Below, piece after piece: positions 1,752 to 18,376 of a DNA stretch of 64,000 bases (positions within the stretch are counted from its first letter, which is position 1; the number at the start of each line of letters is the position of its first letter). The notes beneath the pieces were generated by a model. That model saw only the letters and a list, made by a program, of their open reading frames with translations, was not told the DNA's origin and did no database searches. Origin of the DNA: an uncultured Candidatus Saccharibacteria bacterium (GTDB taxonomy: Bacteria; Patescibacteriota; Minisyncoccia; Phycocordibacterales; UBA918). The stretch is from the NCBI GenBank assembly GCA_964402035.1, contig CAYOAM010000002.1, forward strand, positions 106,111 through 170,110. The letters are read 5' to 3'. The position numbers and the translations under genes are program-made.

Positions 1752-4514
1752 CTACCGCCCTATGTCGTAGAGGCGTTTTATTTCGGTTGCAGAAAGTGCA
1801 CGGTTGTAGATCCGTACATCGTCCAAATTACCATTAGTAATGTCGCTGCTTCCCGTGCGACCTCCTATAAAGAGACTCTCGCTTGTAGTTCTGAGGGCTT
1901 CATTTTCTGTGCTATGGAGCGTAAGCGATTGACCATTCCAATATAGTGCACCCGTGCCAGAACTCGATATATATGTCGCACAAAGATGATGCCATGTATT
2001 TAAGGTAAACGGACGAGGATCAGTGTTCTGCTTTACGTCTAAGACAGTATTGGGCGCTACGTAGGTTGCTCCTGTGTTAAAAACTAGAGCTTCATCTACC
2101 CCAATCGTATTAAACTCAAAAACATAATTGCCCGTATTAGCTGTACTTGAACGAGCGATAATATCTTGCCAACCTGCGGTAGCATTATTTCGACTCGTTC
2201 TTCTATATACCCAAGCACAAATAGTGATCTCGCTTGAAGGTGCAATACCCGTACCTGCATTAATATAATCGTCAACGCCATCAAACTGAATCGCTTGCCC
2301 TATTTTCCCCGGCACTGTTGTTGATGCATGATTTCCCCAATCACTGCGTGTCGTACTCTTTTTATTAATAATCTCGCCAGTTGTTGAACTCGTATCCACA
2401 TCTAAGCCATCAAAAGTCGTATAATACATGAGACCAGTTTCTAGAGACGTATTTGCTCCTGCCATGGACGTGTTCACTTTTGCGGTAGCACCGATAGCGT
2501 AGAGGCGATTGACTTCGTCTGAAGAGAGAGCGCGGTTATAAATACGAACATCATCAATATTTGCATTTGAATAATGGACAGGAACATCATTGTATCCGCT
2601 ACCAACCAAATAGGTCCCCGTATTTACACCTGTTGTTATGCTTAGTGTGGATGAAGCTAATACACCATTTCTATAAATCTTCAAATTTGTCAGGTCATGT
2701 ACCACTACAATATGCTGCCACTCATTTACAGCATAAGTTGTGTCAGCAGCCTTCGCAGTGTTATCCCAATTGTAAGCCCAGATACGATTTATAGTACCAT
2801 AATTTGTCGATGTACCAACCATGATGCCAAAATATCCCGCATCATCCATAATTAGCGGACTTAAACTGTATATATTTGATGCGGTCCTTCCATAATCTAA
2901 GGGATATACCCAGATCGCAATCGTTTTCGCTCCGGATCCAAGCTGAGCAATTGTTCTGTTGGTTGAAACATAATCATTTACGCCATCAAACTGGATTCCC
3001 TGTCCTATTTTTCCAGGCACCGTTGTTGTTGCGTGATTGATCCAATCTCCACGAGTGGTACTTTTCTTGTCGATAATTTCACCTGTCGTAGAACTCGTAT
3101 CAACATCAGCTCCATCGAACGTCCAGTGCCCCACGAGTCCATTTTCCAAAGCGGTGTTTGCCCCACTCATAGAAGTATTGATTTTCGAAGTAGCGCCGAC
3201 TTGGTAGAGACGTTTGATTTCGTCAATAGATAGCGCACGAGTATAAATCCTAAAATCGTCTATTGATCCAAGAAAAGAAGTACTCGTATCACTCACGAGA
3301 GAAATGAGCAGCGTACCGCTCCATGTACCAAGGCCAGAGCTTGAGGACCTTTCCACACCATCTACATAGAGTTTGATCGTATCAGCCGTCGTGTCCCACG
3401 TGGCGACGACGTGCGACCATGTACTTGTACCGATAGCGCTCACGGGCGTCGTCGCTTCATCGAGTGTCCCGCCACGTACGTGCACATACGACCACCGATC
3501 ATTGAAATTGTCGTAGTTCAACGATAAATAATTAGATATATCGGTAAATATCGTGAAAACGTTCTTGTCAGTGGTAATGGAGTCTGCAAAATCCCGTTTC
3601 ATCCACAATGCGATGCTACCGGTATTAGTATTTACCGCACTATTCACCGAACTTATGTCAAGACCAGTTTCAGTGCCTTCAAAATACACAGCACTACCAA
3701 TCTTTCCTACAGCATCAATCACCGCATTTTGTGGTATTGCGGTATATCCTTTGCCTGTGTGGTCTTTGTAGCCATCAGAATAGACGATCACGCCAAGCTG
3801 ATTTAGATCAAAGTCTCGGGACGTCGACGAGTCAGCATCTGGCATTATTTTCACCCGGAAATTTGCATTGCTCAGTTCTGACGTCGACCACGTACGTCCC
3901 CATTTGTAGAAACTACTCCCATAGAAATCTACTTGGTCAGTTATTCCAAGATCTGCAGAACTTTCTGCAGCTGTCCAACTCGTACCACCATCCCACGAAA
4001 GAGCAATACAAAACAGATTATTCCCTGTGGCGCTATCCACCTTGCCGACCGTAAACAACTGAATACCTTTAATAGGATCGTTCGATGTTACCGATGACAC
4101 CGATATATTAAAATCTTGAAACACATGTTGATCATCTTCGCTTTGCGGAAAGGTTCCACAACCGTCAACGGAAGTTGCAGAGCCAGAATTGGTATCTCTC
4201 ATATAACCCGTATCAAGGACCGCAGCATCCAACAGCCCTGTACCCGATGTAGTTTCAAACCCATTATTATCACCCGCACCTGAAGATACGGAAGAACTGG
4301 CGGTCGTGACAAGGGTCGCATTGCTCGATGTTGCATGCCCTCCGTCAAATGACCAATACGCAATTAATCCATTTTCGAGATTGGGATTAGAGCGAAGGGA
4401 TTGACTGAAAATAAGTATCGCGCGAGATGCGAGTGGATATGCACCAATGATAACCATGGCGATAACACCGAGGATGACGAGTTTGAGGTGGGTTTTGAGG
4501 AAGGTTTTGAGCAT
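1752..4514 (-). CDS. Secreted or membrane-anchored protein with three LamG / concanavalin-A-like lectin jellyroll domains.
   Basis: The motif DD[VF]RIY[NT]RALS..E[IV][KN]RLY recurs three times, the LamG_3-type signature. The hydrophobic N-terminus (MLKTFLKTHLKLVILGVIAMVIIGA) makes the start at about 4514 more plausible than the track start at 4589. Confidence 0.7.
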   Translation of the reverse strand: MLKTFLKTHLKLVILGVIAMVIIGAYPLASRAILIFSQSLRSNPNLENGLIAYWSFDGGHATSSNATLVTTASSSVSSGAGDNNGFETTSGTGLLDAAVLDTGYMRDTNSGSATSVDGCGTFPQSEDDQHVFQDFNISVSSVTSNDPIKGIQLFTVGKVDSATGNNLFCIALSWDGGTSWTAAESSADLGITDQVDFYGSSFYKWGRTWSTSELSNANFRVKIMPDADSSTSRDFDLNQLGVIVYSDGYKDHTGKGYTAIPQNAVIDAVGKIGSAVYFEGTETGLDISSVNSAVNTNTGSIALWMKRDFADSITTDKNVFTIFTDISNYLSLNYDNFNDRWSYVHVRGGTLDEATTPVSAIGTSTWSHVVATWDTTADTIKLYVDGVERSSSSGLGTWSGTLLISLVSDTSTSFLGSIDDFRIYTRALSIDEIKRLYQVGATSKINTSMSGANTALENGLVGHWTFDGADVDTSSTTGEIIDKKSTTRGDWINHATTTVPGKIGQGIQFDGVNDYVSTNRTIAQLGSGAKTIAIWVYPLDYGRTASNIYSLSPLIMDDAGYFGIMVGTSTNYGTINRIWAYNWDNTAKAADTTYAVNEWQHIVVVHDLTNLKIYRNGVLASSTLSITTGVNTGTYLVGSGYNDVPVHYSNANIDDVRIYNRALSSDEVNRLYAIGATAKVNTSMAGANTSLETGLMYYTTFDGLDVDTSSTTGEIINKKSTTRSDWGNHASTTVPGKIGQAIQFDGVDDYINAGTGIAPSSEITICAWVYRRTSRNNATAGWQDIIARSSTANTGNYVFEFNTIGVDEALVFNTGATYVAPNTVLDVKQNTDPRPFTLNTWHHLCATYISSSGTGALYWNGQSLTLHSTENEALRTTSESLFIGGRTGSSDITNGNLDDVRIYNRALSATEIKRLYDIGR

Positions 4515-4575
4515 ACGTTTTTTAGGATGTGTATCCCAAGGACCGTCCTTGGGATTGCTGCCTGGTCTCAACAAT

Positions 4576-7500
4576 TTATCCTCCATCACCGCTCTCCGGA
4601 GCAGGCTCAGGCGATGGTTCTGGTGATTGTTCAGGAGCTGGCTCAGGGTCCGGTACTGGTTCGATCACCGGATCTCCTCCTTCTGGAGGCACATCTTCCG
4701 CAGGTGGAGGAGGATCAATAGGTGGGTCATTTGGGATCTCTTCTACCACAGGGCGAACGACCACACACTCTCCCGCCACCGTCTTTGTCTCTCCGTTTTC
4801 AATCGAGAGACAATACGGTTCGCCCGTTGCTTCGTCATAGAGCGTAATACCGGTACGCTTCTCACTTGTACCGACCGTGAGTGTGTCGGCAAAGAGGCCT
4901 TTGAAGTATGCAACACCATTTTCTATAGTGATACCAAGATCATGGAGTACACCCAAGACTCCCGAACTGCCCACTGCTGCCCCACCGCCCGCAAGCAGAG
5001 TCTCTAAACTCACGACACGAGTCTCGAGGCTATCGACCTTGAGTGAAAGTGCTTGTGTGGCAGCGATATTGAAAGTAGCCAGTTTGTATATATCGACACC
5101 TTTTCCATCTGCTGAGAGGACGGCCGAAGGTGCTTCCTCCGCAATGAGACCAAGGCGCAACGGCGCACTCTCCTCTTCTGTATTGTATCGATACTGCGCT
5201 ACCTGTATATTTTTTAAGTCTGCAATTATAGCATCAGTGGTTGACGCACTGATATGCGTAATGTCTTTCTTGGCACTCTCGGTTGATACGTTTACAAAAG
5301 ACTGTGCCGCAACATCGCCAACCACCTGCAGTGCATATTGTGGTGATGTGGTGCCGATACCAATGTTTCCTGATACTGGATCAATGTAAAAATCATTGTC
5401 CGCAAAACGATGCGTGTAGTTCAGGAAGACATCAATGGTTGAAGTTGAAGTTGTCGCAAATGTCTCAGCATCAAGTGCAAAACCGATAATCACTCCTGTT
5501 GAAGTTGCACGAGCAGCGTAGCCTGGTTCGCCGCCAACAGAGATCGGATCACCGATAGCAATAACGCCACCCTCGTTGCTTACCCGTACTGGTACGCGTC
5601 CAGCAAGAGCCAATGGGATTTTTGCTTCTGCTGTAACATCATCGGTAAATCCTCCAAGCAGAAGTCCAGGATCCGATGAAACCACGCCCGCAAAACGGGT
5701 ACTTGTGGTACTTGCAACTGCCGTATCAAAACGAGACACGTGTCGAGCATGATCCGGATCAAACATCACAACTTCACCTTTTTGCAGCGTAAGGTCAGTA
5801 CTCAAGTACACTTCAGCCAAATCCAAGCCCGCAAGCGAAGAGCCTTCGGCATAGACAAAACCACGCGTGCGCGCCGACGATGCACAGGTGTTGCCTGCAC
5901 CATTGTCGACACAAAGTGCTCCGTCTGCGATAAGTACCGAGCCGTATGGCACGTTGGTCGAATCAAGTACCGTGTTGGTCGATGTACCAAAAACAGAGCG
6001 AGCTTTCTGGAGCGCACCGGAGCCATTGGATTGTCCATAGATCGTGAAGAGCTGATTGCTATCTATCTGTGCCGAGAATGACTGCACAGCGCCCGATGTT
6101 GATGATGCACTGATCGGCAAATTGATCCAACTGAGTACCCCTGCATCATTTTCAAATTCTATTGGACCCGTGTTCAAACGTTCTATATACGTATTGTTTG
6201 CCACCGGATCATACGTAATTGCCCCACTGTATACATCAAGCCCGGTATTGATCGATGTTGTCGCCATCGAAATACTAAACTTTGTTGATGTCGCAGAATA
6301 ACTATCCGTCGATGTGCCAATTGAGAACACACCACCAAGATTTGAGATGAGCCAGTTTTTCATGTTGGTACCTGCATCAGTGTCGGTGAGTGCGAGGTAT
6401 GGTGTTGAAGAGGCAATATTGAGTGTCCAATTTGGCGACGATGTACCAATACCAACATTGCCACCATTGAGGACAGTCATACGGAGACTTGACCCTGCGT
6501 TTGTATAGAAGTTGATCGCCTCACTTGCTCCCGTACCAGAGGTAAGTGATAAATTATCACTTGCGGTCACACTTAGGTTGGTGAGACCAAAGACTCCACT
6601 CGCATCAAAAGAGCTGTAGTTTGTCCCTCCATCATTCATAACCACAACCAACGGATCCGAGGCACCATTAAATACGGTGAGATCAACGTTGTCTACACTC
6701 GCATCACCCACCACAAAAACCGGTACATTAGTTCCATCATTTTCAGGGAGAATTAAGTTCAATCGATTTGCATCTGCATCCGCCGTCTCCCAGACAAACT
6801 TCGCATCGGCGCTCGTGCCAAGACTACTGTACTGATCGTCGGGTAACTGGAGTCGAGTGGTTGGATTACTCATGCCCAAACCAACATTTCCCTCTTGCGT
6901 AATCGTAAATCGTGATGATGTTGCCGTGAGTGCATCAGATGAGGTACCGATACTGAACACCCCACCAACATTTGAAAGCAACCAGTGTTTTTGATCTGTC
7001 CCCGCATCAGTATCGGTGAGCGCAAAGTAGGCACTTGTTGAAGCAACCTGGAGGGTCCAGTTTGGTGTCGTGGTGCCAATACCAAGACTGCCAGACGAGA
7101 GCGTACCCTGTGTGCCGTTTATATTTGTGCCAAACAATATATTTCCGATATTGAGCGTATTTGTGGCAAGTGCATTTGGTGCATCAATATCATACCCAAG
7201 CACGATATTGTTTGAACCGCTGGTAAGATTGTTGCCAGCGCCATATCCAACGAGCACATTATTATTCCCTGTCGTGTTTCCAGATCCAGCTAAAGTACCA
7301 ATAAATACATTATTCTGCGATGCTGTGACACCAGAAACACCCAGTCCTGCACCATACCCAACAGCGACTGTTGCAGTTGCGGATCTGTTTAAATATAGTG
7401 CTGCTGCACCAATTGCGACAGAATTTGCTCCTGATGTACTTCGTAGCAAAGCATCCCAACCGACTGCAGTATTAAAGGTTCCTGTTGTATTACTGTTCAG

Positions 7501-10500
7501 CGCACCATACCCATTACCAGTATTGTATGTACCAGTTGTGTTACTTGAGAGAACGAAGGCCCCGCTCGCTGTATTATAATTACCGCTTGTATTATTCAAT
7601 AATGCATTAGTACCGACAGCAGTATTATTACTACCCACCGTATTACTAAAAAGTGCATTCGTACCAACAGCAACACTGTAAAAACCAGTTGTATTGAAGG
7701 TTAATGTGTTGTAGCCTACCGCCGTATTTTCAATTCCATTTGTGTTGTTTCGTAGTGCATTGTCGCCAATTGCTACATTCTGAATACTTGAGGTGCTGGT
7801 ATAGAGCGCATTTGATCCAATAGCAATATTGCCGTCTTGTTTTCCACCCAACGTCAGTATTGGTATACCTGAGATATCATTAATCGTAAACGCACGACTT
7901 GTCGTACTAATTTCCTTTATAGAAACAGAATCAAGTGCCCACGCAGATGTATTTGCAACAGTATTCCCGGTAAATGTAATGGTCTCTGTACCCGTTACTC
8001 CTGAATCAAACGTGACGGTTGATGTACCAGCACCAAAGGGTCCCCAATTCTGATATGCATTTACACTTGGTGACAAAAAGTACGTCACTTGCTCACGGGT
8101 GGTTGAAGAAATATTTAAGGTAAGTTGGTAGGTCTTTCCTGCAACAACTGCAAATGTTGTTGAGGCACTCGAACCAGTACATCCGGAGACGTTTGATACG
8201 ATATTGCCCGCACTCCATGCGACACACGCGCCCAGGTTCCAGCTACTTGCGTCCGTATCAAAATTGCCATTCGTGATAAGTTCGCTTCCGTACGTTGGCG
8301 TATCACTATTGATCGACAGTTTTGCAGTTGGTGTTGTGCTACCAATACCTACTCGGCCAGTATTTGTAACCGTAAATAGACTGCCGTCAACATTTGCAAG
8401 GTTGAAGATATCACCCGTTCCCAGCTGTGTTAAGTTTGCCAACGCTACCGACGTTGAGCCAGTCATTGTAAGGAGGCTATACCCAACTTCGCCTGGAGTA
8501 TCGAGTGTGATGCGATTGGTCTCAAGATAGCGAGTGTTGGTACCCCCATCAGAAATGCGCTCGGCTCCTGGGCCAGAGTAGCGATTTCCTGAAAGCGTGT
8601 TGTCGGTACTACCTGCAAGGAATCCTGAAATTTCAATAGCATATCCGGTGCCCTCAAAGTCAGTAATTTGGTTATTACTAATGATATTTTGATCACCCAG
8701 CAAGAAAATGTTGCTATCCGCCGAATTTCCAGCGGCATTATATATGACATTGCCATCAATCACACTATCACTCATACCAAAAGCTGAGATAGCACTCCCT
8801 GTCGTACTACTAATACTATTTCCCCTAATCGTAATTGCTCTAGGTGGTGTAAATGAGTAATCTACAGCAATACCACTACCTGCTATATACGCAAGGATGT
8901 TATCGGTAACCATCACCTCTCTCGAATCTTCACCAATCTTAATGCCGTCAAATGCAACACCTGAAATATTATTGTGGGACACATCGGCACCAATAAGTTG
9001 TGCCGCATCTACACCACGCACACCCGAGCCGCGTATCGTGTTGCCGCGCACCATAAGGCCATAGGTATACTGTCCAACGTTTGCACTGCCAGCATAAATA
9101 GACCGATCCCCTGAGTCTATAATCTGATTGTCGATAATCCGCACATTGTTTGCTTTCACTCGCACTGCGGCGCTATTTGACCCACCAAAATCTTGTACAT
9201 AAAGATTTTCAATGGTCGAACTTGCGGATCCCTCATTAAAATACAGCCCATCCCAGCCTTGAGAGACATGGTGATTGTGTATATTCCCGTCCATGCTGAG
9301 GTTTGAAACTCGCACATATGGAGCGACCGAATAGATCGCATAGTTGTTTACTGAATCAGAGAGTGTTGAAGAAGCTACGACTAACTTTGTGCCATTCCCC
9401 GCTCCGATCATTGTGGTGCCCGTTGCCAAAACGATCGAAGCACTTTCTGAAGTTGAAATTCTCGTTGAAGTTCCAAGATAATAATTTCCCTCAAGAAGGT
9501 AGACAATACCACCATGCGTTGAAGATGCATTTCCCGCTACATACGCAGCATTGATAGCGCGATTAATCTCAACCTCGTCACGAACACCATCTGCTATATA
9601 ATCAGCTTTTTCCTTGTTATTCGAGTCAGACGCAGCAACGATAAAAGTTGCCGTACTCCTGTCTCCCTGCCACGTTCCAGATGCGTACGTGTACATCTGC
9701 CCGCGATCAGTCCTAAAGTACATGGTGCCTTCTAGCGGACTAGTCGGGAAAGAAGTGCCGCCGATGATGCGGATTGTTGAAGACGCCACTAGATAGGTGG
9801 TCGTCGCGTTTTGTGTCACTGTGGATGCAAACGAGACGTTGCCTCCAAAACTTGGATTGGTGTTAAACACAAGTGAACCAGTGCCTGTTTCATCTCCCAA
9901 GATTGAAAGAAGTTCGGCTGATGTATCAATCGAGGTACTTCCAAGCTTGTTGCCAAAGATCGTGAAGTCAGAGGACGTCAAAAGACCAAGTGCATTAATG
10001 CTACTTGCCTGAGGGATATTGAGCGTATGAATGTTACTACCAGATGAAAATCCAAAGCCACCATCACTCGAGGTTGTTGCAAAGATCTGTGTAGCTCCCG
10101 TCTGGCCATTGAGCGACGTGAGCGCTGTTGCAGGAAGACACGTGCCATTCATGGCAAAACAGCCAGTCGCGATATCAATGCCGTTTCGTGCTGTTGTTGA
10201 TCCCGTATTTGAAATACTAAAAAGTGTCGTTGTCGCTGTTGCTGTCGAAGAAGCAAGGGCAAACAGTGTCGTGCTGCCATAACTGGCAGGAGTATGAATG
10301 GCAAAGCGCGCTGACGGAGAGGATGTACCAAAACCAATACTGCCTGATTGACCATTGATCCTAAATTGCTCGGTCACGACTGGTGTGATGTTTGCAACAC
10401 GAACGACAAAATCGGCAGACGTATCCGCAGAACGAATGACAGCGATTTCACCACGTCCTTGGGTAGCGGCTGCCGTCGTACTATTTATGAAACGTAACGT

Positions 10501-13500
10501 GCTTGCGGTACCTGCGGAAGCGCCATTGGAACGTAATGAAAGCAATCCCGTCTCAGTACCAGCAGCACCACCAACAACTTCCATTTTAGTGTTTGCTGCG
10601 GCGGTACCAAAGCCTACAAAACCATTATTGGTTATGCTCAATAATGATGTGGTGGCGGTAAGCGCGTCGCTTGAAGTCCCAATAGAAAAGGTACCGCCAA
10701 GATTTGAGAGTAACCAATGTTTATTGTCGGTACTTGCATCGATGTCTGAGAGCGCAAGATATGGAGTACTTGAGGCTACTTGCAGCGTCCAATTTGGCGT
10801 TGTTGTTCCAAGTCCAAAATTGCCGAGCGATGTAAGTCGCGCCATTTCTACCAAACCTACCGTTGCACTATTTTTTGTTGAAAATGTGAGCGCTGATTGT
10901 GGTGTTGCAATTGCAGTATTGGTAAACACCGCAGCAATGCGTGCAGTCGCCGTTGCATTTAATCCGGCGTCTTGTGTTGAGAATAATAAACCTGTCCCGA
11001 TGCCAGCCGCTGGTGCAGTTCCTGTTGCGCTGTGTGAAATCTGCATCACGTCCGCAATACCATTAAAGGTACTGTCGGTAATATTGGCATTTAACGCATA
11101 GATATTTGCGAGTGATGTTGAGCTTGCTTTGCTAAAACTTCCTTGCCCCGTCACCAACAACCCGCCATCACCAACATTTAAGCCCCCGTTGATGTATGCA
11201 TTGTTATCGACAACAAGGTTTTCGGCAATATTCACCTGATTTGCTGCGAGAGCTCCAATATTTGCTGCAGGCACATCTATTCCACCGATATCAAAAATGC
11301 GTAGTCCAGCACTATCGTCTGCCACATACGCAAATTTTCCAGCTACATAGGTTCCGAGCGCTGAGCCAACAGTGTCATACGTACCAACCTGATATGGTGC
11401 AGTTGCAGATGCGACATTGATAACAGAAATTCCCGATGCGCTATCGGCAATATACGCATATTTTCCCGTTACATAGATACCGTTTGCGGTACCAGCGGTG
11501 TCAAAATTGCCAACAATAGCAGGCTGCGAAGGATCCGCTACATCAATAATCTGAAGACCAGAACCACTATCAGCGATATATACATATTTACCAGCTTGTG
11601 CGACAGCAAGAGAGGAACCTGACGTATTTGTGGTACTTGCAAGCGTCGGCGAAGACGGATTTGAGATATCAATAGTTTGGAGACCTGCGTTTCCATCCGC
11701 AACGTAGGCGTATTTCCCGTTTACCACAACACCATTTGCAATACCAGACGTATTGAATGTGCCTGCGAGACGAGGAATAAATGGATTGCTGATATCGAGT
11801 ATCTGCAGACCGGCAGACCCATCAGCCACATACGCATACTGACCAGAAACATACACGCCGGATGCGAGACCGGGAGTGTTGTATAGGCGTGCCAAGCGTG
11901 GTGCAAAAGGATTACTGATATCAATGATTTGGAGACCAGCAGTATCGTCAGCGACGTACGCATATTTTCCCGCAACATATACGCCATACGAAGTACCTGA
12001 AGTGTCGTACGTACCCAGTAATGTCGGTAGATCGGGATTTGAAATATCAAAAATCTGGAGACCGGATGCGCTATCTGCGACATACGCGTATTTTCCTGAA
12101 ACAAATACCTGTCGTGCAAGTCCCAAAGTGTCATACGTACCCAACGGAATTGGATCACCTTGCGTTTGCACGAGAGTACCAGCATGCACCAAAATTTTTG
12201 TGGATGTCGCCACGTCGGTCGTTGTCGTGCCAATCGTGAGCTTGCCCCCCAGGTACATATTGCCGGTAGTCGTCGCCCCACCATTGATCGTAAGTCCAGT
12301 CTGCTGTGTACCACCACCAATTGTTGAAGACCCGACAGCCAATAGTGACGGCGCACCAAGTACCGTCCCATCAAATGTGAAGCCTGCATTTGATGTGAGC
12401 GTGTCGGTATCGGACCAATACGCGATACGGTTCGTATCACCCGATCCATCAATTGTTGAACCTGCACCAACACAGACATTGTTTACCGCAAAACAACCAG
12501 AAGCAATGTTGATGCCATTTACCGCAGTACTTGTTCCAGTACCCGTGACTGAAAATGAACGCGCAAGAGTTGTGGAGGAATTGGTAATACTAAAGAGTGA
12601 CGAGGTAGTAGTGAGATCATCACTCGAAGTGCCAATCGAGAAAATACCGCTAAGATTTGAAAAGAGCCAGTGTTTTTGATTTGTACCCGCATTGGTGTCG
12701 GTGATTGCAAGGTATGGAGTCGTTGACGCAACTTGCAGTGTCCACTGTGGTGTTGAGGTGCCAATACCGACATTCACAGCGTTACTACCTAACGCACCAA
12801 GTACCAATGCATTACTAATCTCAACAGCCGCATTGGCGCCGATAGCGGTTGCATTGTTGAGACTTGTCGCAATGCTCGATGCATTGGCTCCCAAGAAGGT
12901 GTTGTTGCTCCCCGATGAGAAAGTATTTCCTGCTTGATATCCGACGCCAGTATTGGTATTGCCTGATGAGTTCGAGAGTGCCGAATTACCAATAGCAGTA
13001 TTTTGATCTCCGGTAACATTACTGCCAAGCGCGCTATAGCCAAATGCACTATTTTCTGCACCATCATCATTTGCTCCAAGACTGCTGTTCCCAAATGCAT
13101 TGTTAAAACCACCAGAAACGTTTGCATCAAGTGCAGCACGTCCAAAAGCGCTGTTTGATTCGCCACTTTGGTTTGCATAGAGCGTTCCTTCTCCAAAGGC
13201 GCTATTGCTACCTCCCGCCGAATTGTATGTATACAATGCATTGTGACCAAACGCGGTATTGAATGCTCCCGTGGTATCGGATCTTAATGCGTTGAATCCA
13301 AAACCAGTATTCTGACCATTGGTCGATTTATTAAGTCCCGCACCAAGACCAGCAAACATACTTTCATTTTCAACAATTGAAAATACGGCCGCTTGATTGT
13401 ATGTCAAGATTTCTCCCGAAGAAGCATTGAAGTTTGTCGCGGTCGTAGTACCATTCACTGCGAGTCTGGTGATCGGCGTCGTGGTACCCACCCCCACATT

Positions 13501-14190
13501 TCCTCCATCGAGTACGGTAAACACTTCGGTTGCTCCATCAAAAATATTTAAAATATCTCCAGTACCACTTTGCGTGATCGTAAGTAGTGTCGAAGCAGAT
13601 GTACTTGCAAGTGAAGTCGACGTGTCACTTCGCAAAAATTGTGAAGACGTCAGTCCATCAAGACGATCTGCTTCAAAGGCGGCAGGAACGGTTCCTAAAA
13701 TTTTGCGTGGAGACATTTCCCCATCCCAACTTGGTGAGCCAGCAGAACCACCAACTTCAATACCCAGATACAGCGTTTGATTAAAATCGACTGATGTTAG
13801 CGCAGTACTACTTCCAAGCATCACACTAAAAAGTCCATTCCTAACTGTGATGCGATCTCCAGCCGCTGTACTTCGATCCTCGGTCCATACTGCAGTAGTT
13901 GTCGCGGCAGTCGGAGATGCGAGCAACCAGAATCGCATATGGTATGTTCCATCAGCAACCGTGACACCACCAGCATTCGTTAACTTGCCCTGATAATTTA
14001 TTTGAAAATTAGGCGCAGCTTCTGTTTGAGTAAATCCTACAAACACCATGGCAACAAAAAGACTCACAACACATGCAGTGCTGATTAATTTTCTTGCTAC
14101 CCAAGAACGATTTACTTTGTACATACTTAGCTTTTTCGACTGCTCTAAAAAAAGCGCTGCGTATTGCGCTCTCAATATTGTACCGTTCAA
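4576..14190 (-). CDS. Giant multi-domain surface protein of about 3200 aa with tail-fibre-like repeats, an LVIVD beta-propeller, a parallel beta-helix, a CBM-like domain and a C-terminal peptidase S74 intramolecular-chaperone domain.
   Basis: There is one uninterrupted 9.6-kb ORF. The N-terminal signal or TM segment is KLISTACVVSLFVAMVFVGF. The track start at 14190 is a TTG, and an ATG at 14124 (MYKVNRSW...) is the more likely start. Domain signatures are itemised in the sub-features below. Confidence 0.85.
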   Translation of the reverse strand: MNGTILRAQYAALFLEQSKKLSMYKVNRSWVARKLISTACVVSLFVAMVFVGFTQTEAAPNFQINYQGKLTNAGGVTVADGTYHMRFWLLASPTAATTTAVWTEDRSTAAGDRITVRNGLFSVMLGSSTALTSVDFNQTLYLGIEVGGSAGSPSWDGEMSPRKILGTVPAAFEADRLDGLTSSQFLRSDTSTSLASTSASTLLTITQSGTGDILNIFDGATEVFTVLDGGNVGVGTTTPITRLAVNGTTTATNFNASSGEILTYNQAAVFSIVENESMFAGLGAGLNKSTNGQNTGFGFNALRSDTTGAFNTAFGHNALYTYNSAGGSNSAFGEGTLYANQSGESNSAFGRAALDANVSGGFNNAFGNSSLGANDDGAENSAFGYSALGSNVTGDQNTAIGNSALSNSSGNTNTGVGYQAGNTFSSGSNNTFLGANASSIATSLNNATAIGANAAVEISNALVLGALGSNAVNVGIGTSTPQWTLQVASTTPYLAITDTNAGTNQKHWLFSNLSGIFSIGTSSDDLTTTSSLFSITNSSTTLARSFSVTGTGTSTAVNGINIASGCFAVNNVCVGAGSTIDGSGDTNRIAYWSDTDTLTSNAGFTFDGTVLGAPSLLAVGSSTIGGGTQQTGLTINGGATTTGNMYLGGKLTIGTTTTDVATSTKILVHAGTLVQTQGDPIPLGTYDTLGLARQVFVSGKYAYVADSASGLQIFDISNPDLPTLLGTYDTSGTSYGVYVAGKYAYVADDTAGLQIIDISNPFAPRLARLYNTPGLASGVYVSGQYAYVADGSAGLQILDISNPFIPRLAGTFNTSGIANGVVVNGKYAYVADGNAGLQTIDISNPSSPTLASTTNTSGSSLAVAQAGKYVYIADSGSGLQIIDVADPSQPAIVGNFDTAGTANGIYVTGKYAYIADSASGISVINVASATAPYQVGTYDTVGSALGTYVAGKFAYVADDSAGLRIFDIGGIDVPAANIGALAANQVNIAENLVVDNNAYINGGLNVGDGGLLVTGQGSFSKASSTSLANIYALNANITDSTFNGIADVMQISHSATGTAPAAGIGTGLLFSTQDAGLNATATARIAAVFTNTAIATPQSALTFSTKNSATVGLVEMARLTSLGNFGLGTTTPNWTLQVASSTPYLALSDIDASTDNKHWLLSNLGGTFSIGTSSDALTATTSLLSITNNGFVGFGTAAANTKMEVVGGAAGTETGLLSLRSNGASAGTASTLRFINSTTAAATQGRGEIAVIRSADTSADFVVRVANITPVVTEQFRINGQSGSIGFGTSSPSARFAIHTPASYGSTTLFALASSTATATTTLFSISNTGSTTARNGIDIATGCFAMNGTCLPATALTSLNGQTGATQIFATTSSDGGFGFSSGSNIHTLNIPQASSINALGLLTSSDFTIFGNKLGSTSIDTSAELLSILGDETGTGSLVFNTNPSFGGNVSFASTVTQNATTTYLVASSTIRIIGGTSFPTSPLEGTMYFRTDRGQMYTYASGTWQGDRSTATFIVAASDSNNKEKADYIADGVRDEVEINRAINAAYVAGNASSTHGGIVYLLEGNYYLGTSTRISTSESASIVLATGTTMIGAGNGTKLVVASSTLSDSVNNYAIYSVAPYVRVSNLSMDGNIHNHHVSQGWDGLYFNEGSASSTIENLYVQDFGGSNSAAVRVKANNVRIIDNQIIDSGDRSIYAGSANVGQYTYGLMVRGNTIRGSGVRGVDAAQLIGADVSHNNISGVAFDGIKIGEDSREVMVTDNILAYIAGSGIAVDYSFTPPRAITIRGNSISSTTGSAISAFGMSDSVIDGNVIYNAAGNSADSNIFLLGDQNIISNNQITDFEGTGYAIEISGFLAGSTDNTLSGNRYSGPGAERISDGGTNTRYLETNRITLDTPGEVGYSLLTMTGSTSVALANLTQLGTGDIFNLANVDGSLFTVTNTGRVGIGSTTPTAKLSINSDTPTYGSELITNGNFDTDASSWNLGACVAWSAGNIVSNVSGCTGSSASTTFAVVAGKTYQLTLNISSTTREQVTYFLSPSVNAYQNWGPFGAGTSTVTFDSGVTGTETITFTGNTVANTSAWALDSVSIKEISTTSRAFTINDISGIPILTLGGKQDGNIAIGSNALYTSTSSIQNVAIGDNALRNNTNGIENTAVGYNTLTFNTTGFYSVAVGTNALFSNTVGSNNTAVGTNALLNNTSGNYNTASGAFVLSSNTTGTYNTGNGYGALNSNTTGTFNTAVGWDALLRSTSGANSVAIGAAALYLNRSATATVAVGYGAGLGVSGVTASQNNVFIGTLAGSGNTTGNNNVLVGYGAGNNLTSGSNNIVLGYDIDAPNALATNTLNIGNILFGTNINGTQGTLSSGSLGIGTTTPNWTLQVASTSAYFALTDTDAGTDQKHWLLSNVGGVFSIGTSSDALTATSSRFTITQEGNVGLGMSNPTTRLQLPDDQYSSLGTSADAKFVWETADADANRLNLILPENDGTNVPVFVVGDASVDNVDLTVFNGASDPLVVVMNDGGTNYSSFDASGVFGLTNLSVTASDNLSLTSGTGASEAINFYTNAGSSLRMTVLNGGNVGIGTSSPNWTLNIASSTPYLALTDTDAGTNMKNWLISNLGGVFSIGTSTDSYSATSTKFSISMATTSINTGLDVYSGAITYDPVANNTYIERLNTGPIEFENDAGVLSWINLPISASSTSGAVQSFSAQIDSNQLFTIYGQSNGSGALQKARSVFGTSTNTVLDSTNVPYGSVLIADGALCVDNGAGNTCASSARTRGFVYAEGSSLAGLDLAEVYLSTDLTLQKGEVVMFDPDHARHVSRFDTAVASTTSTRFAGVVSSDPGLLLGGFTDDVTAEAKIPLALAGRVPVRVSNEGGVIAIGDPISVGGEPGYAARATSTGVIIGFALDAETFATTSTSTIDVFLNYTHRFADNDFYIDPVSGNIGIGTTSPQYALQVVGDVAAQSFVNVSTESAKKDITHISASTTDAIIADLKNIQVAQYRYNTEEESAPLRLGLIAEEAPSAVLSADGKGVDIYKLATFNIAATQALSLKVDSLETRVVSLETLLAGGGAAVGSSGVLGVLHDLGITIENGVAYFKGLFADTLTVGTSEKRTGITLYDEATGEPYCLSIENGETKTVAGECVVVRPVVEEIPNDPPIDPPPPAEDVPPEGGDPVIEPVPDPEPAPEQSPEPSPEPAPESGDGG
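4579..4750 (-). other. Pro/Glu-rich low-complexity C-terminal tail of the giant protein (PNDPPIDPPPPAEDVPPEGGDPVIEPVPDPEPAPEQSPEPSPEPAPESGDGG).
   Basis: Direct translation. The tail lies distal to the S74 autoproteolytic domain and would be released if self-cleavage occurs. Confidence 0.6.
5010..5330 (-). other. Peptidase S74 / intramolecular chaperone auto-processing domain (endosialidase and tail-fibre type) inside the giant protein.
   Basis: The segment STESAKKDITHI...LRLGLIAEEAPSAVLSADGKGVDIYKLATFNIAATQALSLKVDSLETRV matches the S74 consensus (SDERLKxNI ... GfIAQEvEEv.PE.V ... dG...v.Y..L.plLieAiKEL). A coiled-coil-like stretch follows. Confidence 0.65.
6301..6456 (-). repeat. Intragenic repeat module, copy 4 (GIGTSSPNWTLNIASSTPYLALTDTDAGTNMKNWLISNLGGVFSIGTSTDS).
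   Basis: It is one of four copies of a 150-nt, 50-aa module of consensus G[IL]GT[ST]TPNWTLQVAS.TPYLA[IL]TDTDAGT[ND]QKHWL[LF]SNLGG.FSIGTSSDALTAT. I verified it by reverse-complement translation. Confidence 0.8.
6935..7086 (-). repeat. Intragenic repeat module, copy 3 (LGIGTTTPNWTLQVASTSAYFALTDTDAGTDQKHWLLSNVGGVFSIGTSSDALTATSS).
   Basis: Same module as copy 4, verified by translation. Confidence 0.8.
7200..7710 (-). repeat. Second block of NT..G..AL-type short repeats (tail-fibre or phage-fibre-like: NTAVGYNTLTFNTTGFYSVAVGTNALFSNTVGSNNTAVGTNALLNNTSGNYNTASG...).
   Basis: Direct translation. The periodicity of about 13-15 aa also shows up in the antisense ORF 7070-7579 of the track. Confidence 0.6.
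8550..9300 (-). other. Right-handed parallel beta-helix (PbH1 / pectate-lyase-like) region of the giant protein.
   Basis: Repeated motifs NNQIIDSGDRSIYAGSAN, GNTIRGSGVRGVDAA, SHNNISGVAFDGIKIG, TDNILAYIAGSGIAVD, IRGNSISSTTGSAISAF and DGNVIYNAAGNSADSNIF have PbH1-type spacing. Confidence 0.6.
10664..10815 (-). repeat. Intragenic repeat module, copy 2 (GLGTTTPNWTLQVASSTPYLALSDIDASTDNKHWLLSNLGGTFSIGTSSDALTATTS).
   Basis: Verified by translation. Confidence 0.8.
11270..12150 (-). other. LVIVD-type repeat (beta-propeller) region, about eight repeats of YAYVAD..(A/S)GLQI(I/F)DISNP..P.
   Basis: Translated repeats such as GKYAYVADSASGLQIFDISNPDLPTLLGTYDTSG, GKYAYVADDTAGLQIIDISNPFAPRLA and GQYAYVADGSAGLQILDISNPFIPRLAG. 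Confidence 0.65.
12622..12775 (-). repeat. Intragenic repeat module, copy 1 (GIGTSTPQWTLQVASTTPYLAITDTNAGTNQKHWLFSNLSGIFSIGTSSDDLTTTS).
   Basis: Verified by translation. Confidence 0.8.
12840..13320 (-). repeat. First block of NT..G..AL-type tail-fibre-like short repeats (NTGFGFNALRSDTTGAFNTAFGHNALYTYNSAGGSNSAFGEGTLYANQSGESNSAFGRAALDAN...).
   Basis: Direct translation. Confidence 0.6.
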
Positions 14191-14261: not shown

Positions 14262-15833
14262 CTAAATTGTCGCTATTGTTTTCTTTTCTTGTTTACTGAG
14301 CTTTGTGTAGATAAGCAACAACATGAGTAATAGGAAAAAAGCGAACGTCCAGCGGCTAAGTATCGAAAGTATGTAATCGGTAAATGTTGTTTCAGGAACC
14401 GCAGTCATAGGGATCATGTTTAATGACGGAACAACGTGCAAGGTACCCTCCGCTTTTGAAAGACTTCTATTTTTGTAATCCAACACAAATACTGAAATCG
14501 GGTAACTACCGATATCTCGGATGGCCGAGATAAGTCCAGTATAAGCCGTTTTTTGTTTATTTATTCTCAATAAAAATGAAAATTCTTTAGTACTATCAAC
14601 AGAATCGTGCAAAGTAACAATGATAGTTTTTAGATGCTCAGGAAGCTCTTCATACGGTATATTTATTTCAAACGGACTTAAATTATCTATAGCTAGCTCT
14701 TTGCCGATGAATGAAACCTCCTTTCCGTTTTGATAAAAATGTATAGCACTAAATGAAAAAGGTTTATACAGGGGTGCAGTCTCGAATTCTTGTATCGGAG
14801 TGGGACTTTCAGAATTAGGATTCTGACGAGCAACCCGCACAATTGCGCCTGATGAGCTATTGCCGATTTTATCGTACGAGAATAGTGTATAGTAGTGCCG
14901 TTCTGAAGCGCTAAAAGCCCCATTATCACGAAAAGAAGTGTCTAACCCTTCATATATCAATTCACCATCAAATGGGTCTTTGGGATAGCTTATAGAGCTT
15001 CTTATGATGCGTACATGACTAAAGTCTTCACTTAGCGGATTTTTCCACATGAGCACAGCATCATTTCCGTCAGGGGCACCCCGCAAGAGGGAAACGTTTG
15101 GCGGGGCCTCTAGGTCGAGATCGCGATCAGTTACAAAAATATCTTGTCGTAGTACGGTCTCATTGCCTGATCGATCTGTCGCAATAATCCTAAATTCATA
15201 ACGAGTATGTGGCTTCAAATCTACAATGTGTGTGGAGTGTCGTCTTAGTAACGTTCGTTCTACTAAGGCACCCATTTCAAATGATGACGAAATCCCCCAC
15301 GAAACAGTTGCGCGCGTTGGAATTGAAGTCTCCCAGTATAAAGTTGCACTATGTTTATCAACGGTTATGCGAAAATTTGTGATCTGAGGAATGATAGGTA
15401 CTACAGCACCGCCTCCCCCTGCACCAGTTACAGTAGGACTTGAAGTCGCTAGAGCAAACGTTGTATCGGATGTGGTTGCTGAGCGTGCACTGATATTTCC
15501 GACGGCATCAAACGCCGTAATGTTGTAATCGTATGTCGTACTATCAGTAAGTCCGGTATCTGTGTATGCAAGAAGCGCTGTCGTTGCAATCTGGACGTTA
15601 TCACGAAAAATTTGATACCCAGTGACCGCTATATCATCGGTCGATGCATCCCAAGTAATATCAATAGCATCGCTATCCACCGCGGTTGCCAAAACATTCA
15701 GCGGTATAGTAGGAGCTCCCGTATCAGCCGCAACAACACTTTGCGAGATAGTAAATGTATCAGTAACAGCAAACGAGACATTATTACTAACCAGGATTGC
15801 ACATATAGTTATGAATAATAAAACATATTTCAT
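14262..15833 (-). CDS. Fibronectin type III domain membrane protein with an N-terminal signal peptide and a C-terminal TM anchor.
   Basis: The segment DAIDITWDASTDDIAVTGYQIFRDNVQIATT is Fn3-like, and a second Fn3-like segment follows (RITVDKHSATLYWETSIP). The signal peptide is MKYVLLFITICAILVSNNVSFA. The C-terminus has a hydrophobic helix (FAFFLLLMLLLIY) followed by a basic stretch. Confidence 0.7.
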   Translation of the reverse strand: MKYVLLFITICAILVSNNVSFAVTDTFTISQSVVAADTGAPTIPLNVLATAVDSDAIDITWDASTDDIAVTGYQIFRDNVQIATTALLAYTDTGLTDSTTYDYNITAFDAVGNISARSATTSDTTFALATSSPTVTGAGGGGAVVPIIPQITNFRITVDKHSATLYWETSIPTRATVSWGISSSFEMGALVERTLLRRHSTHIVDLKPHTRYEFRIIATDRSGNETVLRQDIFVTDRDLDLEAPPNVSLLRGAPDGNDAVLMWKNPLSEDFSHVRIIRSSISYPKDPFDGELIYEGLDTSFRDNGAFSASERHYYTLFSYDKIGNSSSGAIVRVARQNPNSESPTPIQEFETAPLYKPFSFSAIHFYQNGKEVSFIGKELAIDNLSPFEINIPYEELPEHLKTIIVTLHDSVDSTKEFSFLLRINKQKTAYTGLISAIRDIGSYPISVFVLDYKNRSLSKAEGTLHVVPSLNMIPMTAVPETTFTDYILSILSRWTFAFFLLLMLLLIYTKLSKQEKKTIATI

Positions 15834-16582
15834 AAGGCGAGCGCGGTAATTGTTGTTGTCGCTGTATATGTCCCTGGAGCCTGACTTACAGAACCTCCTA
15901 TGCCGACTCTGAAGCGTATTTGCGTCAAAGTCCCCGTGGGGGTATTCGCTGAAGATCTATACACAATTGTCTGTGCTACTGTCGAAAGTCCATCCCAGCA
16001 TGCAAAATTCGTGTCACCAGAGCCGGTATTGCAGCCTATCCCATCATCTTTGAATCGTGTTGCAATATCGGTACCTTCGGGAGAAAATCCAAGATGTGAT
16101 TCACTTGCCACCGTAGAGAATATGTAGTCGGGATTTGCACCAGCTGGTACATAATCCGCAATCGTATTTGCACCAAATTTCATTGCAGGGCTTGTCGAGG
16201 CAGCAATGGTGAGCTGATATCCACCTGAACTATCAGTAGTCGCAATAACGGTTGTAGATCCGTTACTTTCACCGCCCGTCACCCCACCGAGCGTAGGAGA
16301 CAGCGTAACATTAGTTGCACCAGAAAGTGCTAAATAGGCGGCCTGTAAGGCTTGGTAACCAGCACTCAGATTGTAGGAGGTGCTACTTGAAAAACCAGTT
16401 GCAACTTCCCCTATCGTATCTTCAAGTTTGTACGACGTCGACGAGCTAAATGATCCACCAATATTGATACTGTCGCTCTCGATACGATAACTAGTACTTT
16501 GCATGACTTGTGCCGATGCCGTAGACAGCGAGAGAAGAACAGTGACGACCGCAATACCAATGTGGCGTGGAGATTTACACAT
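15830..16582 (-). CDS. Secreted protein, paralog of 17592-18296. It is a possible WxL-like (degenerate) cell-surface protein.
   Basis: The signal peptide is MCKSPRHIGIAVVTVLLSLSTASAQ. The protein is S/T/G-rich. Shared paralog motifs are GY.[LM]TIAAS..PAM, DD...CNTGS.DT....CW.GLS and the C-terminal .GTYTATTT[IL]TA, which resembles the WxL C-terminal signature (..YT.TL.WTL) but lacks the Trp. Confidence 0.45.
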   Translation of the reverse strand: MCKSPRHIGIAVVTVLLSLSTASAQVMQSTSYRIESDSINIGGSFSSSTSYKLEDTIGEVATGFSSSTSYNLSAGYQALQAAYLALSGATNVTLSPTLGGVTGGESNGSTTVIATTDSSGGYQLTIAASTSPAMKFGANTIADYVPAGANPDYIFSTVASESHLGFSPEGTDIATRFKDDGIGCNTGSGDTNFACWDGLSTVAQTIVYRSSANTPTGTLTQIRFRVGIGGSVSQAPGTYTATTTITALAL

Positions 16583-16594
16583 AGATTTGACGCT

Positions 16595-17584
16595 TTACTT
16601 TCTCTTTATTTCAAATGTCCGTACTATAAAACGTATGCAGAAAAAGACGAGAGCTAGAGCCAGAACAGCGAGAGCTAACAGCTTCCAGGGGACTACGTAG
16701 AACGTGACGCTCTTGGTGTCAATAATATTGTCGTAGCCTCGATTAATTTTTATGTCTGCCGTGTATCGTCCAAAAAGATATGGCCTGTCCCAGCTCAGTT
16801 CACGAAGTCGTACTGATTGTGGCAATGAAAACCATGGGTCAGCGACAACAACGCCAACCTCCTCACCCAGCATATTTTTTATACTTAGAACGCCATAAGG
16901 ATTCAAATGTACCGAACCAGTGTTTTTGTACAGAACTTGAAAATGTATTGGCCCGTTTGCATAAAAAGGTGTATCAGGAATGGTTTTAAAACTCTGCAAC
17001 TCACCACTTTTTTCTATATCTCCGGGCACCGTGACAAAAAACAAAGCCCCGATTCGAGAAATGATAACTGAACCTGATTTTGCCCCACTCTGCACTGGCT
17101 TTTCTCCTGATTCTGGTACCGATGTCGTAGTAACAAGCACACTACCATACAACCCCCCCGGTTGCGCATCGGCAGGTACAGAAATAGTCACTGGTATACG
17201 AGCTCGCTCGCCCTGCCCTAGTTCAAACGTTTTTTCCGGAAACTTAAAGTAATCCTTAAGTGAGTACGGACCTCGATCGTCTCCAAGTAATACTACCGTC
17301 TGATCAGGATCATCAGAACCTTTTGTATCCTCAACCTCGAGTGAAAAAAGGCGTCTATCACCCATTCTATTCGTCACCATAAGCTCGACAACTCGATCCT
17401 TGCCTGCCTCTATTGTGAGATCTACTTTTGTTGGTCCTACAACAAAATCGCCAAAAACCTGATCACCGCCGGGAATCTGTTCAATTGGGTATGCAGCGTC
17501 AGCCAGTGGTATGCATATAAAAAAAGTACCAAAAAGCAGAAATAGAGCGGTGTATGGTACCACGCTACGTATTGTTAGATGCAT
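16595..17584 (-). CDS. Cell-surface protein with an N-terminal signal peptide, an Ig-like beta-rich ectodomain and a C-terminal TM anchor. Its architecture is DUF916/DUF3324-like (CscA-like).
   Basis: The N-terminus is MHLTIRSVVPYTALFLLFGTFFICIPLADA. The C-terminus is WKLLALAVLALALVFFCIRFIVRTFEIKRK. The segment VGPTKVDLTIEAGKDRVVELMVTN fits an Ig-like strand pattern. The gene sits between the two WxL-like paralogs. Confidence 0.4.
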   Translation of the reverse strand: MHLTIRSVVPYTALFLLFGTFFICIPLADAAYPIEQIPGGDQVFGDFVVGPTKVDLTIEAGKDRVVELMVTNRMGDRRLFSLEVEDTKGSDDPDQTVVLLGDDRGPYSLKDYFKFPEKTFELGQGERARIPVTISVPADAQPGGLYGSVLVTTTSVPESGEKPVQSGAKSGSVIISRIGALFFVTVPGDIEKSGELQSFKTIPDTPFYANGPIHFQVLYKNTGSVHLNPYGVLSIKNMLGEEVGVVVADPWFSLPQSVRLRELSWDRPYLFGRYTADIKINRGYDNIIDTKSVTFYVVPWKLLALAVLALALVFFCIRFIVRTFEIKRK

Positions 17585-17591
17585 ACCTGTA

Positions 17592-18296
17592 TTAATTAGC
17601 CGTTGCAGTCAGTGTTGTAGTTGCGGTATAGGTATCTTCAGCGATTGAAGGAGCCGGGTTTGAAGTAATCTGCGTTCTAAAGAAAAAGGTGGTCGTTGCT
17701 CCTGAAGCAGTTGTTGCAGTTGTTCTTAGTATTGTAGATGTTGCAGACGAACTTAAACCATACCAACATGAAGAAGATCCACTGGTATCTGCAGAGCCAG
17801 TATTACATGCTGCCGTATCGTCAAGAAATTTTTGTGCTAGGTCTGAAGTAGTGCTAGCCGAGACAGTATATGCAAACTCACCAGTATTGGCACCGACTGA
17901 ATGTGAAAAGTCAGGTATCCCCGCCGTTGCATTGGTATAATTCGGAATACTACCTCCTTGAGTATTTCCTTGCATTGCAGGAGTACCACTCGCGGCAATC
18001 GTCATCGTGTAGCCGGTGTTGTTGTTGGTGTAAACACGAACTTGCGTTGCCCCGTTCGCAGTACCTCCTGTGAGGCCGGGGATTGCGGTATCCATGGTGA
18101 CATCAGCTCCAGTGCCGACAAAAGAAATTTCAGCAGTCACCGACTGTGAAATCGAAAACTGATCAAAGGCCTGAGAACGAATCACCGTCGGCTCAAGAAA
18201 AACATACATTGCCAAAAAAGCAACAAGTACAAATCCAGCGACAAGTGTCGACCTTCTAAAATCTTCTATCAGACCTGCAATATGTACTCTAGGCAT
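17592..18296 (-). CDS. Secreted or anchored protein, paralog of 15830-16582. It is a possible WxL-like (degenerate) protein.
   Basis: An N-terminal hydrophobic segment (LVAGFVLVAFLAMYVFL) is present. It shares motifs with 15830-16582, including the C-terminal EDTYTATTTLTATAN. Confidence 0.45.
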   Translation of the reverse strand: MPRVHIAGLIEDFRRSTLVAGFVLVAFLAMYVFLEPTVIRSQAFDQFSISQSVTAEISFVGTGADVTMDTAIPGLTGGTANGATQVRVYTNNNTGYTMTIAASGTPAMQGNTQGGSIPNYTNATAGIPDFSHSVGANTGEFAYTVSASTTSDLAQKFLDDTAACNTGSADTSGSSSCWYGLSSSATSTILRTTATTASGATTTFFFRTQITSNPAPSIAEDTYTATTTLTATAN

Positions 18297-18376
18297 ATAG
18301 GATTTTTCTTATTTATAAGATGATATATCTTAAAGTATACAGCACATACGTCGTCCTAACCGTTGACTATCCACAT

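Follow-up and report, generated by a model that had tools for sequence, protein, structure and literature searches.

Background

The closest described systems to the element treated here are the 'mosaic adhesive trimeric' (MAT) fibres of Bdellovibrio, which are intertwined trimeric beta-helices, and for which structure 8OND is described in the same paper (PMC10769870). The edges of the helices carry capping loops with the consensus V-G-G/N-pi-x-x-P-x-x-x-L, and one member, Bd2133, has two beta-helix regions. All members of the MAT family possess a conserved, beta-rich N-terminal domain of ~130 amino acids (aa) after the signal peptide, and in 13 of 21 Bdellovibrio MATs the C-terminus is formed by an S74 chaperone/protease that carries the motif SDxxxK, a domain whose known role is the quality control of trimer formation (PMC10769870). 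Here we analyse a 64,000 nucleotide (nt) stretch of contig CAYOAM010000002.1 from an uncultured Candidatus Saccharibacteria bacterium (the whole of which is referred to below as the window), where a giant open reading frame (ORF) on the reverse strand contains four dispersed copies of a short protein module related to these fibres.

Results

Identity and fold of the module

The module is homologous, by sequence and by fold, to a crystallised segment of the Bd2133 fibre and to S74 fibres of phages. Each copy begins with VGIGTTTPNWTL (GxVGIGTxxPxxxL), and this is the capping loop that has been described for the trimeric beta-helix. A capping-loop motif of ~12 aa occurs 10 times in the giant protein, including at the start of all four modules, against a mean of 0.43 occurrences in 500 composition-preserving shuffles, and the spacing from loop to loop is 67 aa at copies 2 and 3, compared to ~72 aa in Bd2133. 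AlphaFold2, applied to an alignment of 60 sequences, predicts an all-beta module of six strands with a mean pLDDT of 89.2. When this model was used in a fold search of the PDB (Foldseek), significance was reached only by the two chains of 8OND, a structure of the C-terminal domains of Bd2133 from Bdellovibrio bacteriovorus (E 2e-4, probability 1.0, TMq 0.66, 30% identity), with all other matches at E>1. Comparison of a sequence profile with the PDB also retrieves 8OND (E 9.3e-7, profile positions 2-70 matching chain residues 134-207), and the capping-loop portion of the profile additionally matches the Bdellovibrio fibres 8OML, 8OJN and 8OL4. Among predicted viral structures, the best matches are S74-domain fibre proteins, namely those of Synechococcus phage S-B28 (TMq 0.89, rmsd 1.4 A) and of S-CBP3 (TMq 0.87), which together show an rmsd of 1.4-1.6 A and 28-29% identity.

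The G[IL]GT motif of the four copies starts at ORF residues 475, 1126, 2370 and 2580 (window positions 12768, 10815, 7083 and 6453 on the reverse strand, from a motif scan). An earlier note, made from the letters of the window alone, had recognised four copies in these places, and its intervals are right to within a few bases. Its judgement that the copies are highly similar at the protein level also stands, yet the suggested identity of 75-85% is slightly too high, with measured values of 69-79% in the 52-aa core and 56-69% over a wider comparison of 75 aa. The proposed length of 50 aa needs to be extended: homology continues for ~12-15 aa C-terminally, through '...TSSLFSIT', giving a conserved unit of ~65-67 aa. 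In the four-copy alignment 29 of 71 columns are invariant, and copy-to-copy BLASTP E-values lie between 1e-23 and 1e-28. Chance or low-complexity similarity was considered as a source of the repeats and rejected, since these E-values and the 19,458 relatives reported below speak against it.

A further resemblance to the described fibres is found at the C-terminus. In a scan of the C-terminal segment, PF13884 (Peptidase_S74) reaches 24.4 bits, above its cutoff of 22 (E 3.5e-5), with a weak MYRF_ICA match thereafter, and matches to PHROG tail-protein families cover aa 2955-3062. Within the motif 'STESAK', Ser2969 (codon 5284-5286) and Lys2974 possess the S-x4-K spacing, and Ser2969 is a putative self-cleavage site by analogy with characterised S74 domains. 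The last capping loop of the protein lies 26 aa upstream of this predicted cleavage serine. Beyond the S74 domain come a heptad-like stretch and an acidic tail rich in proline.

Divergence among the copies

At the DNA level the copies are far less alike than their products. Ungapped identity between copies is 59-67%, falling to 32-51% at third codon positions, while local BLASTN alignments give 71-76% over 131-185 nt. The longest exact run common to any two copies is 8-14 nt, and only one 16-mer recurs exactly anywhere in the gene, in the LVIVD repeats and outside the modules. Nei-Gojobori estimates among copies are 0.20-0.31 for dN, and 1.0-1.7 for dS where saturation did not prevent its calculation. 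Moreover, the nearest neighbours of each copy include copies in the proteins of other organisms (P0018, P0021), at identities at least equal to those with its own paralogues, and consequently there is no sign of concerted evolution. Given this divergence, the pattern of dN and dS, and the presence of nearest neighbours elsewhere, the copies are ancient; purifying selection has maintained the protein sequence, and gene conversion has not homogenised them. An origin by recent duplication or conversion was rejected because dS is saturated. Homologous (RecA-type) recombination requires roughly 20-30 identical bases, and the module copies are poor substrates for it. These intragenic repeats thus represent ancient domain copies, and not an instability hotspot.

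The module family

An exhaustive HMMER search of 1.84 billion cluster representatives with a profile built from the four copies matched 19,458 representatives at E<=1e-3, 3,485 at E<=1e-10, and 144 at E<=1e-30, many of which are giant proteins with dozens of matched stretches. The best 150 matches contain 273 near-full-length modules in 86 proteins (to a maximum of 24, in a protein of 7,634 aa), with the remaining proteins matching only the first 20-35 residues. The GxVGIGTxxP motif of the next capping loop immediately follows 142 of the 273 modules, a GCF...C cysteine loop follows 36 of them, and the spacing between modules in relatives is mostly 100-300 aa. The consensus of 60 diverse copies is GNVGIGTTTPxWxLQxASTxPxLALTDTxAGxNxKHWxxSSxGGxFxIGTSSDALTxT...LTI..G, in which conservation is 90% or higher at G, G, T, P, A, K, H, W, G, T and D. 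Across relatives the element stands in many contexts and in 1 to 24 copies per protein, which fits a modular, mosaic architecture, and to this extent the earlier note's view of a conserved, reused element is supported. The accompanying suggestion that each copy precedes a distinct block holds insofar as copies stand between different blocks, but to say that they follow a block is an equally fair description: an NxAxG block ends at copy 1 and another at copy 3, copy 2 comes after the LVIVD region, and copies 3 and 4 bracket a longer capped unit of 143 aa.

Structurally the module is of a known kind, but as a sequence family it is new and has no entry in the curated libraries. A search of aa 2364-2648 against Pfam-A 2025 yielded no credible match even at E<=10 (only DNApolII_N, a chance match at E 0.12 and 12.6 bits), the whole protein found no match in NCBIfam 20 or, by phmmer, in the PDB, and no match in PHROGs v4 covers any module. 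A word-index protein search with one 80-aa copy was also without a match, and the same kind of search with the 60-sequence profile, which returned only proteins near the query length and so missed the giant module carriers, retrieved just seven proteins of 113-128 aa, either unnamed or labelled 'hypothetical'.

All named or genome-placed relatives belong to the Patescibacteria, a statement that covers the loci obtained with strict patterns and a few named proteins. Eight genome loci with the module originate from Saccharibacteria, Kaiserbacteria, Nomurabacteria, Paceibacterota and Parcubacteria, although they were found through very strict patterns, and the apparent restriction to Patescibacteria is thus biased; one named relative is from Candidatus Wolfebacteria. 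Two IMG/VR contigs classed as viral (L012 and L013, sample 3300025635) encode the module at ~52% identity. The carrier on L013 is a protein of 1,103 aa that matches a PHROG tail-fibre family and has a signal-like N-terminus itself, and could be a Patescibacteria phage fibre or else derive from a misclassified cellular contig.

The giant protein and its surroundings

The features of the giant protein are summarised in Table 1. A public protein (P0003) is identical to the window protein from MYKVNRSW onwards and starts at the ATG at 14124, giving 3,182 aa. The TTG with which the mechanically called ORF opens lies 22 codons upstream of this ATG (14125-14190, reverse strand); the ATG, which gives a typical signal peptide, is more likely to be the true start. 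A query consisting of aa 58-246 matches 194 proteins or fragments at E<=1e-3, with identity of up to 68%, and the named homologues are all from Patescibacteria (Pacebacteria, Kaiserbacteria, Parcubacteria and others). The N-terminal domain is among the most conserved parts of the giant protein, and it may act as a cell-proximal anchor.

Both NxAxG repeat blocks end in a module copy, which suggests that block and module together form an older, larger duplicated unit. The LVIVD region, whose seven tandem repeats were located at 11306-12103 on the reverse strand, is probably a beta-propeller. A Pfam scan of nine segments that lacked annotation added matches to Beta_helix and NosD only. A two-cysteine motif, NGI.IA.GCFA.N..C, is repeated at ~12463-12555 and ~10129-10221 on the reverse strand (aa 546-576 and 1324-1354), where it follows module copy 1 and the degenerate module at aa 1285, respectively.

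Table 1 Features of the giant ORF, with positions in the window and residues numbered along the ORF
Feature	Position	Strand	Basis or remark
Giant ORF, 3,204 codons	4576..14190	(-)	Counted from TTG; product a fibre-like surface protein, probably secreted, with S74 at its C-terminus
N-terminal signal peptide or membrane anchor, MYKVNRSWVARKLISTACVVSLFVAMVFVGFTQTEAAP	14014..14124	(-)	By eye from sequence
Conserved N-terminal domain, aa 58-200	13591..14019	(-)	After signal peptide
Capping-loop motif without full module, aa 232	13462..13497	(-)	Motif scan
First NxAxG repeat block, aa 286-470	12781..13335	(-)	Homologous to aa 2113-2350; ends at module copy 1
Module copy 1, aa 473-538	12577..12774	(-)	Capping loop and short beta unit
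LVIVD repeat region, seven tandem repeats of 42 aa / 126 nt, aa ~680-975	11266..12153	(-)	Pfam, self-comparison
Module copy 2, aa 1124-1189	10624..10821	(-)	Next capping loop directly after, aa 1192
Capping-loop motif, aa 1192, closes copy 2	10582..10617	(-)	Motif scan
Capping-loop motif, aa 1285, starts degenerate module, then Cys-loop motif	10303..10338	(-)	Motif scan, BLASTP
Right-handed beta-helix region, pectate-lyase-like	8572..8988	(-)	Pfam
Capping-loop motif, aa 1947	8317..8352	(-)	Motif scan
Second NxAxG repeat block, aa 2113-2350	7141..7854	(-)	PHROG tail spike / virion structural protein matches; ends at copy 3
Module copy 3, aa 2368-2433	6892..7089	(-)	Next capping loop directly after, aa 2436
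Capping-loop motif, aa 2436, closes copy 3, opens longer unit of 143 aa	6850..6885	(-)	Motif scan
Module copy 4, aa 2578-2643	6262..6459	(-)	Most diverged; KNW in place of KHW
Last capping-loop motif, aa 2943	5329..5364	(-)	Aligns to Bd3182 capping loop in 8OJN
Peptidase_S74 intramolecular chaperone / autoprocessing domain	5005..5328	(-)	PF13884

Genes near the giant ORF encode GAPDH, GatB and SecA, together with LamG and FN3 surface proteins, and no phage genes were identified among the neighbours scanned. That the ORF is a prophage tail-fibre gene was rejected in view of the cellular context among these neighbours. On one side, the listed ORF of a 945-aa protein with three LamG-type domains (1752-4589, reverse strand) overlaps the end of the fibre gene by 14 nt, and on the other flank lies a 523-aa FN3 protein (14262-15833, reverse strand), both being probable surface proteins. 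Four ORFs further upstream (15830-19099) have no Pfam family above the cut-off.

Discussion

The explanation that we favour for these observations, with a probability of about 0.68, is that the module serves a giant surface fibre that processes itself, as a unit of its stalk that keeps the trimer in register, rather than as a flexible hinge. Each copy is a single conserved domain of ~65-67 aa, made up of the capping loop (GxVGIGTxxPxxxL) and then five short beta strands. Under this hypothesis, the fibre would probably be a trimer of chains lying side by side, in which three copies of a module, one from each chain, may build a short intertwined triple beta-helix segment bounded by capping loops. 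Such segments could act as rigid stalk or re-registration nodes that return the three chains to a common axis after each functional block, whether this is a set of NxAxG repeats, the LVIVD propeller region, the right-handed beta-helix or a smaller unit. Trimerisation would be assisted by the S74 domain, which would afterwards release itself by cleavage at Ser2969, and the whole protein would represent a giant secreted surface fibre of the Patescibacteria cell, similar to a phage tail fibre, and plausibly binding a host cell or a surface glycan. Trimer formation, autoproteolysis, the stalk and registration role and host adhesion are all proposed here by analogy with the characterised fibres.

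Several observations weigh against this interpretation. Superposition of the module on the 8OND crystal chain gives a TMq of only 0.66, with an rmsd of 6.2 A. A model of aa 2355-2660 (306 residues, comprising module 3, the 143-aa unit and module 4) is poor, with a pLDDT of 61.7 overall and below 50 in the middle unit, and is too weak to show stacking of the units; a PDB search with this model again places 8OND first, at a TM of 0.17. The S74 match appears only when the C-terminal segment is scanned alone, being missed in a scan of the whole protein, and the second residue of the S74 motif is T, not D. The monomer is predicted to fold confidently as a single chain, which is compatible with a monomeric spacer domain, and the K-H-W and D residues, which hardly vary, could belong to a binding site instead of a structural interface. 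Furthermore, LVIVD propellers and right-handed beta-helices are usually formed by a single chain, and the accommodation of three of each along a fibre presents a difficulty.

Alternatively, the main task of the module could be to bind a ligand, such as a glycan or a metal, with its repetition giving multivalent adhesion in place of a passive stalk. This would account for the conservation of polar K-H-W, D and T/S residues at 90% or more across the 60 diverse copies, and has a precedent in Bd3182, where a cleft in the beta-helix surface, lying between two capping loops, has been proposed to bind O-antigen in the manner of the P22 tailspike (PMC10769870). However, Bd2133, the closest solved relative, is without such a cleft (PMC10769870) and has QNW in place of KHW, just as copy 4 here has KNW, and a three-fold interface would be just as likely to show conserved polar residues, so that we consider this role improbable. 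Somewhat less probable again is that the module is an independently folding monomeric beta spacer, comparable to Ig-like spacers, in a single-chain giant adhesin, and that its resemblance to trimeric fibres reflects shared ancestry only. While the high-confidence model was obtained with no partner chains, and LVIVD, right-handed beta-helix and other domains of this protein are normally monomeric, this view leaves aside the C-terminal S74 domain, known for quality control of trimers, and the capping-loop motif, which has been described only on trimeric beta-helices (PMC10769870); the top structural relatives are, moreover, all trimeric fibres.

The earlier note had instead proposed a conserved linker or hinge, encoded by a long DNA repeat that could act as a substrate for recombinational deletion or shuffling of the intervening domains. 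It is true that the copies stand between different domain blocks, that contexts and copy numbers of the module vary across relatives, and that full-length Bd2133 fibres are conformationally flexible in electron micrographs (PMC10769870). Yet the structure prediction gives a compact, confidently predicted unit of six beta strands, homologous to a segment of the Bd2133 beta-helix, and not a disordered linker. The copies also proved far more diverged in their DNA than had been judged by eye, which is essentially the outcome that the note itself had named as telling against recombination: with DNA identity of 59-67%, third positions near saturation (dS 1.0-1.7 or saturated), exact matches of 8-14 nt at most, the sole repeated 16-mer of the gene within the LVIVD repeats, and concerted evolution not seen, recombination between the copies is not supported. 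Nor were variants found in the collections searched, which hold no close relative: the giant protein is a singleton when clustered at 90% identity, the three contigs carrying it are identical places, and no relative among JGI metagenome proteins exceeds 51% identity. Among the rivals, a hinge and recombination substrate is the least compatible with the data, and we regard it as very unlikely.

Returning to the stalk and registration unit, a broader and more tentative proposal, which we rate at slightly less than an even chance, is that Patescibacteria (CPR) build giant self-processing trimeric fibres, of 3,000 to more than 7,000 aa and of the lineage of Bdellovibrio prey-recognition fibres and phage tail fibres, as organelles of host recognition. 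The KHW module would then be a repeating stalk node expanded in CPR, its conserved histidine perhaps binding metal on the three-fold axis. No published link of MAT or S74 fibres to Patescibacteria was found in the literature searched. Host recognition and attachment in the ultrasmall, episymbiotic Patescibacteria are largely obscure beyond type IV pili, and the present analysis assigns one giant 'hypothetical' surface protein, together with thousands of relatives, to the experimentally characterised S74/MAT lineage. In addition, the capping loop and the 65-aa KHW unit offer a simple sequence marker for parsing giant Patescibacteria surface proteins. The link at the level of the family may be worth recording, whereas the specific finding is one of ordinary domain repetition.

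Comparison with known fibres

The name given by JGI to the related protein P0021 refers to the trimeric autotransporter adhesins (YadA-like). The giant protein shares with these adhesins the form of a long, repetitive, probably trimeric surface fibre, and its NxAxG-type repeats recall the repeats of the YadA head. In contrast to them, however, Pfam scans revealed neither YadA domains nor the membrane anchor of an autotransporter, and trimerisation is here expected from the S74 chaperone. To our knowledge, Patescibacteria do not possess the outer membrane that autotransporters need.

A closer likeness exists to S74-type phage tail fibres and tailspikes, such as the K1F endosialidase (3GW6), the T5 L-shaped fibre (4UW8) and the predicted S-B28 and S-CBP3 fibres. 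The module superposes on a predicted fibre segment, the C-terminal intramolecular chaperone domain is the same, and PHROG tail-protein families match both the repeats and the C-terminus. Unlike the phage proteins, the fibre described here is encoded among cellular housekeeping genes with no adjacent phage genes, carries a probable N-terminal secretion signal, and far exceeds the size of typical phage fibres.

The closest system is that of the MAT fibres of Bdellovibrio bacteriovorus, especially Bd2133 (8OND) and Bd3182 (8OJN/8ONB/8ONC) (Caulton et al. 2024, PMC10769870). The present protein differs from these in its host, a Patescibacteria cell and not a Gram-negative predator, in being approximately three times longer (3,182 aa against ~1,000), in its internal LVIVD, right-handed beta-helix and NxAxG blocks, and in the signature of the module, PNWTLQ[VI]AS...KHW...IGTSSD, which is present in 4 copies here and in up to 24 in relatives. 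What the two have in common is the capping loop (V-G-x-G/N-small-x-x-P-x-x-x-L), a short beta-helix unit of ~67-72 aa from loop to loop with ~30% identity to the module, a mosaic architecture, a probable order of signal peptide (here a signal-like N-terminus recognised by eye), N-terminal domain and long beta-rich fibre, and a C-terminal S74 domain, here a predicted chaperone/protease, with S-x4-K spacing and a capping loop ahead of it.

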